Assembly (NCBI GenBank): GCA_035604955.1
Contig: DATNHM010000034.1
Location: forward strand, 10,889-74,888
Length of the DNA stretch: 64,000 nucleotides
Source: Candidatus Limnocylindrales bacterium
GTDB taxonomy: Bacteria > Verrucomicrobiota > Verrucomicrobiia > Limisphaerales > UBA11358
Reading direction: 5' to 3'
Every line of letters begins with the position of its first letter. Position 1 is the first letter of the stretch. The notes beneath the pieces are model-generated. The model saw nothing but the letters and a program-made list of their open reading frames with translations. It did not search any database and was not told the DNA's origin. A program made the position numbers and the translations under genes. Of this stretch, positions 59,611 to 62,600 are shown in pieces.

Positions 59611-62600
59611 TTACGGCTTTCTCAGCCGGTAGAACTTGCTCGAACCGGTGATGTCTGCCGTGACAGTTTTTTGGTCGCCAACGACCACCGGCGTGTTGGT
59701 AACGGCCAACCAGCTTGATTGCAACACGAGATTCGATGTCGTTTCAAGGGCGAATCCATCTGGAACGACGGGCCAGGAAAGCAACACCTGATAGTTGGTG
59801 AGGGTAATGTTCAACACCACCGGTGACGCTACTCCGATGGAGAGAACCTGAATAGCATTGGCCGCAGCCGCACCGTCAGAGTCGGCGACGGAAAAGAAAT
59901 TGGTCCAAGTTCCATTGGCCACGGAATCAGCGGTGACGTTCATCGCGGCGCTTACATTGGTGTTCATGTTGCCTAGCGACCAAATGATTGAACTGTCGCC
60001 GATATCGCATGACCCACGGCCATATTGTACCCAATCCAGACTGATTCCTGCCGGCATGGCGTTGCTCATGGTGACGTTGTTCAGATTAAGCGAGCCGACG
60101 TTCTTGACGGTAATCGTGTAGCTGAATGTGGCGTTGTTATTGAGATTAGTGCTCGCCGGGGTAACGGTTAAATGGAACTGCGGATTGGCGACAATGGTCG
60201 TCGTTGCATCCGCCGTAAGGTAGGGTTGCTCAATATTGCCGGCGTTGTCGTGGGCCGTGCTGTAGAAGCCGTAAGTGTGCTGCGGCAGGCCGCGGAATGA
60301 GGCGTTCGTGCTTGTGGTGGCAGACTCCCAGAGCGTCCATGAACCACCGTTGTCGGAGACATAAATGTCATAGCTCGCCACACCCGAACCGCCGGAGTCG
60401 TCGGTGCCGGTCCACGAGATTGGGAATTGGAGCAGTTGGCTCTGTGCCGGCAGCGGCAGGACGTGACTGGTAGGCGCGACCGCGTCTATCGTGATGAGAC
60501 ACTGCTTGGCAGGGTCAGTGCCGGCGGCGGGATTATTGGGGTCAACCTGGTCGGTGGAGATGGCTGGCTGATTGTCGAAGGAGATCAAAGCCACGTTGCG
60601 GAATTGCGTGCCGTTGGGCAGGCCGTCCTTGACACGGATAGTGTAGGTGACATGGCCCTGACCGCGCCCGGTGCCGTCCTCTGGCGGAAGGAATCCAATG
60701 TTTACGGGTGGCGGCAGGCTGGTGTTGGGATCAATTGAGTGGAAGTTGGCATAGACTTGGCCGGAGACGAGGTTGATACCAATTTGGATTTGCACTTGGA
60801 AATTCGTGCCGAGGTAACTGACCAGCACGTTGGTTTCAAAGTGTTGGATGCCGGGCGGCAACGCGAACAGCATGTCGCCAAACCCGAATTCTGAGACGTT
60901 GAATGTGGACCAATCGAAATTCGTGCTGAGTTGGTCCGCGATGACGACCTGCTGTGCCGGTGCGGTGGCGTTGGTTGTGTTCTCGAAATCAATGCGGTAG
61001 GCAAAAGCGTTGTCCGATGATAGGAAACCGCTCGTGCCAAAACCAGCGGGGCCGGTTAGTTGGTTCGGGTCGGTGGGGCGAGTAACGGGAGTTGTTGGCC
61101 CAGAATTTGTCATGCACATGTGGTATGCGTAACACAGGTCTGGTTCCGTCTCCCACGACGGCCTGGGGCTGTCGTCCATTATGAGTGAGCCGTAGCATCC
61201 GATTCCGATGTCCACACCGTCGAGAAACGCCATGGAAATATCGTATACCGTTACCAGTGGGAGTAACTTTGGCAGCAATGTTCTTCCGAGTAATTTTCCG
61301 AATTGCTTAAACACTATTCTGAGTTCAGTCATCCGCTCCACTTTGGTCACCGCGCGTTTGGCAATCTGGCTTCCAATTAGACTGACAATACGTTTCCCAA
61401 CGTCATTGGCGGAGCACTTAATGAATTCATCCCAACCTAGGCCAGATGGATCGGTTTCCGATATGGGGTCGTTTGCGAGCGTGTAGAGATTAATTTCGCC
61501 GCCACCAAGACCAAGCGGATCGGGCGATGTGAATCGACCGAGGCTCGGACTGTAGGAGCGGTTGCGCATAAAAACAAAACCGTTGTCTTCTTGCACCACG
61601 CCAAGTTGTCCATTGAACTGAAATGGATTGGGGACTGTCTCTACCCGCTTTAGCGGAGTACCAAAGGGCGCATGAGTGTATGAATTGACGACAACACCTG
61701 CGGCGGTGACGAGTTGTTGTGCGTTCCCAATCGCATCGAACGTGTAAAATGTCGCATTTCCGCCCACATCGGTCCGGGACACCAACTCGCTGCTGTGGTC
61801 ATAGCGCGCAAGGAAACCGCCCACAGCATCATACTCGCCGACAACGTTGCCAAGGCCAACGGGGTCAATCACGTAGCGTGTCATGCTTTCATTCTCGGTT
61901 TTAGCGACGCGACTGCCCATGCCGTCATATGCGTAACCCCAATTGCCTTGCGGCGTGGACACCGCGATGAGCTGATTGTCGTCATTGTACGTATAGGTGT
62001 TCGTGCCTTGTGGTGAAGCTTCCCGAATCAGATTACCGTCTGCGTCGAAAGTGTAATGTGTCGTGCCGACGGTAACGTATTGATTCAGGTTGTTGATGGT
62101 ATATGAATTTGTGACGCCATTCTCGATCGTTTGGGTGCGATTGCCCATCACATCATATACATAGGTAAAATCCTGATTGGGTATGTTAGTCGTGGTCGAA
62201 GCAAAGACAGCATGTGTCAATTGCCCGATGTCGTCGTAATCGTAAGTCCAATGTCCATCAAGCGTGTCCATGGAGGAGCGACGGCCCCGGCTATCGTAAC
62301 TATAATTGAACCGGGAAATTACGGTGTCATTCGCCAGTGAATTCGTCAGTTTCAAGAGTTGCCCTGTAGGATCATATTGGTGTGTCGTGAACATACCATT
62401 GCCAACCGTTTTGCGCGCAATCCGCCCAGCAGGGTCATAGTCGTAGAGCACAACGAGCGCATTCAGCTCGTTTGTCATGCTCTGAAGCCGGCCAGCAACA
62501 TCGTAGTAGTAATCGAGACGATGACCGAGTTGATCCAGGCTGGAGGTTCGGCGCCCGGCTGAATCGTAGGAGAATGTCAAATACTTGCCGCCAGGATAAT

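Follow-up and report, generated by a model that had tools for sequence, protein, structure and literature searches.

What does a rearrangement hotspot (RHS) protein carry behind its self-cleavage motif when the chain runs on for 608 residues and no immunity gene follows? The question is raised by a gene of peat-soil Verrucomicrobia, seen as a minus-strand open reading frame (ORF) at 59611..>64000 of the 64,000-nt stretch of contig DATNHM010000034.1 analyzed here (the window), where it stays open to the window edge (translation 59611-63999). Polymorphic toxins, those of the RHS type included, are generally taken to follow two rules: the variable toxin forms the extreme C-terminus and is fully enclosed, and the cognate immunity gene follows. 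Both rules are broken, in the same way, by the window gene and by 76 or more species-level relatives, which have an internal cassette between conserved regions, an oversized module behind it, and no immunity gene. On the best reading the gene encodes an RHS protein that is exported by the Sec route, is extracellular or attached to the surface, and belongs to a widespread, apparently undescribed class. Its parts come in the order signal peptide, lectin/Ig/beta-helix N-terminus, DUF6531, three-turn YD shell, Rhs core with its aspartyl-autoprotease motif intact, hypervariable ~130-aa cassette, conserved DUF7619-like plus FN3-like unit, and lineage-specific domains. We state this architecture and the existence of the class with high confidence.

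The RHS gene and the integrity of its reading frame

The RHS part of the gene comprises the following features.

59611..64000 (-), RHS gene, 3' 4.4 kb; the full gene encodes 2876 aa, the first 1414 of which are encoded past the window edge
63730..63918 (-), DUF6531, before the YD shell (Pfam PF20148, ORF aa 28-90, E=7.7e-8)
61672..63729 (-), YD/RHS repeat shell (11 RHS_repeat stretches; AlphaFold2; Foldseek)
61438..61671 (-), Rhs-associated core with a bipartite DPLG...DPSGL aspartyl-autoprotease motif (TIGR03696, aa 777-854)

The full gene was read from L001, one of two independent metagenome contigs (L001 and L002) recovered via nrdJ. On this near-identical contig the protein has 2876 aa and a Sec-type signal peptide, followed by Laminin_G_3, Big_5, a long uncharacterised stretch and then DUF6531. 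As a correction to the preliminary description of this DNA, the ORF runs past the window edge. No PAAR domain was found in the full-length L001 protein and no type VI secretion system (T6SS) genes lie near the RHS gene, the L001 neighbours being housekeeping genes. In searches of the window ORF with Pfam and NCBIfam, the RHS part gave DUF6531, 11 RHS repeats and Rhs_assc_core (aa 777-854); in the extension, DUF7619 matched aa 123-182 and a second stretch, and DUF11/CLIPPER matched aa 423-521. The region after DPSGL (61438-61452), earlier put at ~610 aa, consists of 608 codons plus the stop, which fill 59611-61437.

An assembly or sequencing artefact could in principle have merged two genes, one for an RHS toxin and one for an adhesin, and about eight related loci from metagenome-assembled genomes (MAGs) have RHS and module in different frames or with a stop between them. 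These split loci (L024, L026, L047, L063, L065, L094, L114 and L123) show either different frames or an in-frame stop inside the cassette region. Several are 'MFD' MAGs, which we take to be long-read assemblies, and indel errors in Pro/Gly-coding runs are the likely cause, although real split genes or pseudogenes may be among them. At the window locus the ORF runs unbroken in the window, in L001 (40/17,880 positions differ from the window) and in L002 (99.97 % identical to L001 over 10.5 kb), and the per-run contigs of four peat-metagenome runs have 0 differences and 0 indels over 60700-61800. The codon-position GC of the cassette is coding-like in the annotated frame only, and the continuous architecture recurs in 76 loci from other species. 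Because the same unbroken frame is found in three assemblies and in the per-run peat contigs, the fusion is not a frameshift artefact, and the artefact explanation is effectively refuted; the hidden stop or frameshift contemplated in the preliminary description was looked for and not seen.

The RHS shell and its capacity

AlphaFold2 run on 65 homologues modelled residues 1-850 of the window ORF with a predicted local distance difference test score (pLDDT) >90 and a predicted template modelling score of 0.73; in the same model the cassette has pLDDT <50 (three helices) and the first domain behind it is a separate confident domain. Foldseek searches with the shell placed T6SS Rhs cores on top (8qja, RhsA 7q97 and Tse5 8cp6; E=1e-54), with the bacterial teneurin-like protein (BiTLP) 9ifo, teneurins and TcB-TcC at lower ranks. 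The core ends in ...GRFTSPDPLGLGGGEINLYTLANDPISETDPSGL|GWDEFIK..., and cleavage is predicted from the motif to fall after the L of DPSGL. In alignments, the segment SPDPLGL-(19 aa)-DPSGL falls on the C-terminal ends that cleavage leaves on the Tse5, RhsP and RhsA chains. The two DPxG aspartates are spaced 23 residues, which we take to be the same spacing as that of D651 and D674 of TccC3.

Three-turn cocoons hold ~15 kDa and four-turn Tc cocoons ~30 kDa (PMC8765631), and the BiTLP cavity of ~44,000 Å3 has been proposed to limit C-terminal domains to ~15 kDa (PMC13018210). By this reckoning a 608-aa fragment of ~64 kDa would not fit a three-turn shell, in agreement with the earlier suspicion that the extension is too large, and the 122-aa cassette would. 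As 608 aa is far over a ~15-kDa cargo, the module behind the cassette would have to lie outside the shell.

A hypervariable cassette in the canonical toxin position

Directly after DPSGL lies the segment on which the interpretation of the protein turns.

61072..61437 (-), hypervariable cassette, 122 aa (low identity, low GC, no family; canonical RHS toxin position)

The preliminary description had the adhesin-like extension standing in place of a small toxin. That view has to be given up, as the position normal for an RHS toxin is taken up by the first 122 aa, which are toxin-sized, have lower GC than their flanks, and are hypervariable. The identity of the cassette to those of four close RHS-plus-module relatives (P0002/3/8/10) is 9-16 %, and the lengths differ too, against 43-82 % for the flanks in the same alignment. 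The values for the individual parts, with D1 to D4 being the successive domains of the module, are these.

RHS end, 43-63 % identity to window
D1, 72-82 % identity to window
D2, 72-73 % identity to window
D3, 52-79 % identity to window
Tail (D4), 42-53 % identity to window

The cassette is amphipathic/hydrophobic, contains 4 Cys and ends in a Pro/Thr linker. Its GC content is 0.50 versus 0.55-0.57 for the flanks (5-7 points lower) and its third-codon-position GC is 0.56 versus 0.65-0.70, which suggests cassette exchange. This difference echoes the classical contrast between Rhs core and extension. AlphaFold2 modelling of the extension (119 homologues) gave pLDDT <50 for residues 1-121, which are partly helical with two short helices. 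In the same slot other members of the class carry PLA2-like, HExxH, LRAT-like and glycine-zipper sequences. As the first 122 aa are toxin-sized, hypervariable and toxin-positioned, the adhesin-like part has been added to the cassette and does not replace it; the description best supported is that of an RHS protein carrying a cassette and, behind it, a further module, rather than a toxin-less RHS protein. The cassette is best described as horizontally exchangeable, cavity-sized and in the canonical payload position.

The architecture recurs in other genomes

Species-representative genomes were scanned with back-translated GFLPPEDGTGRG, an invariant motif of D1, which gave at least 119 loci, and class membership was decided with small hidden Markov models (HMMs) for the Rhs core and the module. 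Among the matches listed, to which the counts and taxa that follow refer, there were 118 module-bearing ORFs, and 76 of these ORFs also contain an RHS core, placed upstream of the module. The search for homologues with the same RHS-plus-adhesin fusion that the preliminary description had called for thus gave a positive result, the fusion being real and recurrent. Most loci belong to Planctomycetota and Verrucomicrobiota; other labels are Phycisphaerae, Ca. Kuenenia, Holophagae, Lentisphaeraceae, Gammaproteobacteria (Methylumidiphilus), Ca. Accumulibacter and Syntrophorhabdus aromaticivorans UI. The RHS-bearing relatives are spread over Planctomycetota and Verrucomicrobiota, and there are single ones labelled Ca. 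Kuenenia, Syntrophorhabdus and Methylumidiphilus. Singulisphaera sp. Ch08 and Syntrophorhabdus aromaticivorans UI are carriers that have been cultured. Of the remaining 42 module ORFs, 18 are cut by the locus edge; in ~8 the RHS ORF immediately precedes the module ORF but lies in a different frame or is closed off by a stop. Many further proteins with both RHS and DUF7619 came from a homologue search made separately with the shell. Our literature search turned up neither a link of RHS to DUF7619 or DUF11 nor any account of RHS proteins that carry domains behind the toxin or cassette. The layout is widespread and apparently undescribed.

Two MAGs labelled Thermoplasmatota (L052) and Methanoregulaceae (L087) have RHS-cassette-module ORFs on archaeal-binned contigs. 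The L052 cassette is 78 % identical to that of L102, and we suspect binning contamination behind both archaeal labels.

Cassette statistics were taken from the 76 class members, with 56 shell windows from the same shells as controls. Cassette lengths range from 70 to 223 aa (median 131.5), with 73/76 at 90-180 aa; this size range matches that of encapsulated toxins of Rhs and teneurin-like proteins (~15 kDa; PMC8765631, PMC13018210) and was counted for a payload. DPxG stands directly before the cassette in 66/76, the next residue being L in 42. Only 6 similar pairs were found among 77 cassettes, whose C-terminal ends are Pro/Gly-rich and of low complexity. Several features are enriched over the controls.

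TM-like (transmembrane-like) hydrophobic stretch, 22/76 cassettes and 1/56 shell controls
GxxxGxxxG, 33/76 cassettes and 4/56 shell controls
Six or more Cys, 11/76 cassettes and 0/56 shell controls

One cassette matches the PLA2-like family PF08398 above the gathering score (E=3.8e-8); others gave weak PLA2, LRAT or glycine-zipper matches, and HExxH was seen by eye in four. A hydrophobic 92-aa C-terminal domain of a teneurin-like protein (TLP) permeabilises E. coli when exported (PMC13018210), and Tse5 is described in PMC10684867 as an encapsulated Rhs pore-former.

The conserved C-terminal module

The 486 aa behind the cassette make up four domains.

60478..61071 (-), D1, DUF7619-like (CnaA-type) beta-sandwich with an insertion (PF24595, E=3e-19, 69.8 bits; pLDDT 86-98)
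60184..60477 (-), D2, FN3-like beta-sandwich, SWTGTDDSGGSGVASYDIYVSDNGG... (AlphaFold2 strands 323-415, pLDDT >90)
59830..60183 (-), D3, CLIPPER/DUF11 Ig-like domain (PF01345, E=2.8e-13, 50.6 bits; TIGR01451; AlphaFold2 strands 421-534)
59614..59829 (-), D4, terminal 'FYRL' beta-sandwich tail (AlphaFold2 strands 543-606), ending 2 residues before the stop (59611-59613)

The five-part division of the extension proposed from the sequence agrees with the AlphaFold2 model, which resolves aa 1-121, D1, D2 (~323-415), D3 (421-534) and D4 (543-606), with residues 122-608 forming four beta-sandwich domains mostly at pLDDT >90. D1 (approximately extension aa 123-320) opens with the conserved DPNQLTGPAGFG. 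D2 always accompanies D1 and is conserved in the A2 consensus. The PF24595 and PF01345 scores are both over the gathering scores. The adhesin-like character of the extension was likewise upheld, not only by these DUF7619 and CLIPPER matches but also by Foldseek, in which the best PDB matches of the extension are the adhesin Ig domains of PrgB and of the C-terminal part of antigen I/II (AgI/II), together with integrin legs and complement MG domains. None of the Pfam/NCBIfam, AlphaFold2 and Foldseek results identified the whole extension as a known RHS-associated toxin. A recent study counts DUF7619 and CLIPPER among the CnaA-like domains found in fibrillar adhesins and notes that many DUF11 domains are without an isopeptide bond (PMC12617251). 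By eye, D3 has T and N where the CLIPPER Lys and Asp are expected, and D1 has R in its first strand.

Across the class the region after D1-D2 diverges by lineage, with lengths of 300-2100 aa. In Verrucomicrobia it continues with CLIPPER and the FYRL tail. The post-cassette regions of 10 members scanned contain PKD, cadherin, Big_9, RTX, RCC1 and cohesin domains, with dockerin type I in 5/10. Signal peptides of Sec type or planctomycete type are present in several complete class members. No C-terminal TM or PEP-CTERM-like anchors were seen in the last 45 aa of the class ORFs inspected; dockerins were found instead. The DUF7619 unit also ends non-RHS secreted proteins with dockerin, Calx-beta, PKD or FG-GAP N-terminal parts.

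Could the module be an export or sorting device resembling the C-terminal domain of type IX secretion system (T9SS) cargo, clipped after outer-membrane translocation to leave a conventional cocoon? The FYRL domain always ends close to the C-terminus (in 20 ORFs the tail HMM match lies 1-5 aa from the stop), an unrelated secreted neighbour in L128 ends by eye with an FYR motif in the same position, the DUF7619 unit closes the non-RHS secreted proteins just mentioned, and the conserved DPNxxxGP boundary could be a processing site. However, DPNQLTGP is modelled inside folded D1 at high confidence, and the content after D1-D2, as listed above, varies in a way that looks functional rather than like a signal. 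The size of the module also argues against sorting, as do the lack of cognate secretion genes nearby on L001 and the lack of a Pfam or NCBIfam family for D4, including any curated sorting domain (T9SS C-terminal domain, PEP-CTERM). We therefore consider a sorting role distinctly improbable, and an external adhesin or tether the likely function of the module.

The tail had been called shared, but within the window the tail HMM finds it in the RHS ORF only. A plus-strand ORF at 32691-36155 encodes a secreted protein of 1154 aa containing DUF7948, SBBP beta-propeller repeats and three Ig I-set domains; its end, ...PQLFYLLQMQ, is loosely FYRL-like and is not detected by the tail HMM. On L128 the gene at 3177-3881 (-), convergent on the RHS gene of P0002, encodes an unrelated protein with a terminal beta-sandwich ...ARFYRTVPEAVAPQ. 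This ending suggests that FYR-type C-terminal domains are a common ending of Verrucomicrobia secreted proteins and may represent an undescribed sorting domain.

The DUF7619 unit also occurs in other contexts. In L004 (8545-10544), L005 and L006 a module protein without RHS has a very Gly-rich N-terminal region of ~215 aa (GGFGGPGG repeats), which gene callers missed; they called a spurious LADLADLAD ORF in another frame and placed the start of the real gene at the Met of DPNEMTGP. Note that the many 'standalone' DUF7619 proteins of 481-482 aa, considered as separate genes in favour of a hidden stop, were rejected as gene-calling artefacts because the frame continues upstream via ...DPN(Q/E)M|TGP. 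A second recurrent context is found on the Holophagae contig CAWDGW010000017.1 (two ORFs of L055, L021 and L107), where in paralogous module genes a Cys-rich segment, ...LDLQFPDPPSYCCLDSCDDPLPPDP..., precedes the module and replaces the RHS core.

The region downstream of the RHS gene

59217..59610 (-), intergenic region without immunity gene (394-nt spacer, NrdR-box-like site, hairpin)
56121..59216 (-), nrdJ, class II B12-dependent ribonucleotide reductase (NF005122, 1326 bits)

The reported lack of an immunity gene was confirmed: the RHS gene is followed by a 394-nt regulatory spacer and then by nrdJ, the next gene downstream and unrelated to the RHS gene. The ORF at 59308-59547, earlier judged to look non-coding, matches nothing in Pfam or NCBIfam, lacks a TM segment and has no conserved counterpart on the P0002 contig. 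It also overlaps an NrdR-like box and was rejected as an immunity gene on these grounds. The box is the near-palindrome CCACAATATGTTGG at 59386-59401 (-), the sole 16-mer in the 64-kb window with at least 12/16 matches to what we take to be the NrdR consensus. A second, weaker box-like site, CCCACTAAATGGGG at 59355-59368 (-), lies ~35 nt downstream of the first. As the ORF has neither family nor TM segment and holds an NrdR-like box, we read the spacer as nrdJ regulatory DNA, and because both box-like sites sit upstream of nrdJ, the sequence suggests that this class II ribonucleotide reductase may be controlled by NrdR rather than by a B12 riboswitch. A cobalamin riboswitch was discarded, as Rfam gave no family match in the spacer. 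A strong 12-bp GC-rich hairpin at 59264-59295 (-), followed by TGATTTGTCT, lies 48 nt before the nrdJ start and 316 nt past the RHS stop; it could be the RHS gene terminator or an nrdJ attenuator.

Other class loci agree. No conserved downstream small ORF is present in ~45 loci with sequence after the stop, nor in L128, the contig of P0002 (among the closest relatives of the window), where a convergent unrelated gene lies downstream of the RHS gene.

Payload, scaffold or both

How might such a protein work? We propose that the cassette is a payload that would be held unfolded or loosely folded in the shell, like the cargo of T6SS Rhs effectors and of bacterial teneurin-like proteins. The chain would then exit the shell, and the four Ig-like domains would fold outside as a tether or adhesin for the producer surface or a target. 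Self-cleavage at DPSGL|G would leave cassette and module as one fragment, retained in the shell non-covalently. A hydrophobic or amphipathic cassette, once released, may act on a membrane from outside, which would explain the absence of both a translocation machine and a cytoplasmic immunity protein. Membrane action is proposed because the cassettes are enriched in membrane and lipid features and neither a translocator nor an immunity gene is present. We consider an encapsulated effector a somewhat probable identity for the cassette, and the reading of payload plus external module as a whole is, on balance, the one we favour.

Several observations weigh against it. The window cassette has no recognisable toxin domain, as no Pfam family matched it, and it has essentially no homologues: an exhaustive HMMER search of 1.84 billion representatives gave a single weak match, P0121, a Cys-rich repeat protein that was judged irrelevant. 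The other 65 cassettes match no Pfam toxin family and contain no nuclease, deaminase or ADP-ribosyltransferase domains. No small ORF is conserved downstream in the class loci, whereas almost every bacterial TLP gene has an immunity gene (PMC13018210). Cleavage may not be universal, ~30 % of class members having a non-canonical residue after DPxG or no motif, and the ~8 split loci may count on the same side, whether as long-read errors or as real splits. Finally, the exit of the chain is conjectural for a cassette modelled at pLDDT <50, and the BiTLP shell has no opening (PMC13018210).

The missing immunity genes, the lack of a family and of homologues for the window cassette and the 65 cassettes without a Pfam toxin match favour a payload-free, teneurin-like scaffold or adhesin, in which the shell would be a structural hub and the 122 aa a fast-drifting linker, perhaps a decayed former toxin. 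The Pro/Gly-rich, low-complexity ends of the cassettes would suit a linker, adhesin-type domains are present on both flanks of the shell, and metazoan teneurins use the same logic (PMC8765631, PMC13018210). However, the autoprotease motif, which is absent in teneurins, has been kept here and in most class members, and several cassettes have catalytic-looking PLA2 (HD), HExxH and NCxH motifs. The narrow, cavity-sized lengths and the TM and Gly-zipper enrichment over shell controls are unexpected for a neutral linker, and the lower cassette GC suggests exchange. We regard the scaffold as a rather unlikely account. The earlier suggestion of a surface-displayed RHS protein of different function thus stands as to the surface or extracellular location, the different function being a possible but minority reading.

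An extension of the payload proposal concerns release. Binding to, or a pull on, the external module could draw the cassette out of the shell, although we think such an extraction step unlikely. A 'ripcord' RHS toxin, in which a cleaved membrane-active cassette in the cocoon is covalently tied to an external adhesin or dockerin module and deployed by ligand or pull, would be a speculative arrangement that we rate no higher.

Comparison with known systems

The T6SS Rhs effectors (RhsA of P. protegens, Tse5 of P. aeruginosa, RhsP and Tse15) share with the window protein the three-turn YD cocoon, the DPxG...DPxGL core and a hypervariable ~15-kDa segment right after the motif, the Tse5 payload being a hydrophobic pore-former. 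The window protein differs in having a Sec signal peptide and a lectin/Ig N-terminus where T6SS Rhs proteins have their PAAR/VgrG mounting, in having 486 aa of folded domains past the cassette, and in lacking an immunity gene.

Bacterial teneurin-like proteins (BiTLP, PDB 9ifo; PMC13018210) are likewise Sec-dependent and surface-displayed with N-terminal adhesion domains, and have a YD shell around a cleaved, polymorphic ~15-kDa C-terminal domain that is in some cases hydrophobic and membrane-active. TLPs are, however, defined by an FN-plug, NHL and YD shell (PMC13018210), a definition that the window protein does not fit. No Pfam match to NHL was found in the window ORF or in the L001 N-terminus, DUF6531 preceding the shell instead. 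Moreover, the TLP C-terminal domain is terminal and fully enclosed, with an immunity gene after almost every TLP gene. The six phyla listed in the TLP study include none of the Planctomycetes-Verrucomicrobia-Chlamydiae group (PMC13018210).

Metazoan teneurins likewise have a YD shell. They act in adhesion, and their sizeable C-terminal region (ABD and Tox-GHH) lies outside after an internal stretch, the C-terminus passing through a shell opening to form external domains (PMC13018210), an arrangement that the window protein may share. Unlike the window protein, they lack the DPxGL cleavage motif, are uncleaved and are type II membrane proteins, and their external domains are unrelated to DUF7619 and CLIPPER. 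As the cassette sits in the payload slot and the module would lie outside the shell, the window protein appears to combine the payload logic of T6SS Rhs effectors and TLPs with the topology of metazoan teneurins.

The TcB-TcC part of Tc toxins joins RHS encapsulation to aspartyl autoproteolysis, needs no immunity gene and acts on non-kin targets, as the window protein would. Unlike the window protein, Tc cocoons have four turns, are built of two proteins, dock to the TcA translocator and carry a terminal payload; TcA and TcB genes were not found in 22 kb of L001 or among the large window ORFs. Fibrillar adhesins with CLIPPER/DUF7619 stalks (PMC12617251) have the Pfam families, Ig-like CnaA-type folds and an extracellular setting in common with the window protein. 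The window protein differs in having single-copy domains after an RHS shell and no tandem stalk repeats, and by eye the isopeptide Lys and Asp of D3 seem to be replaced.

Implications

The interbacterial and anti-eukaryote weaponry of Planctomycetota and Verrucomicrobiota is almost unstudied. If the cassette is a payload, these proteins would represent a Sec-dependent, machine-independent deployment of RHS cargo and a large reservoir of unknown small membrane-active domains, and would provide a testable model for the exit of a chain from a YD shell, a matter that bears on how teneurins arose. If instead the scaffold reading is true, bacteria would use RHS shells as adhesin hubs. Should the cassette be deployed by ligand or pull on the external module, the class would supply a toxin that needs neither a translocation machine nor an immunity protein and the first prokaryotic teneurin topology, with C-terminal domains outside the YD shell, and thereby the step so far missing between the encapsulating toxins of bacteria and the adhesion receptors of metazoans.

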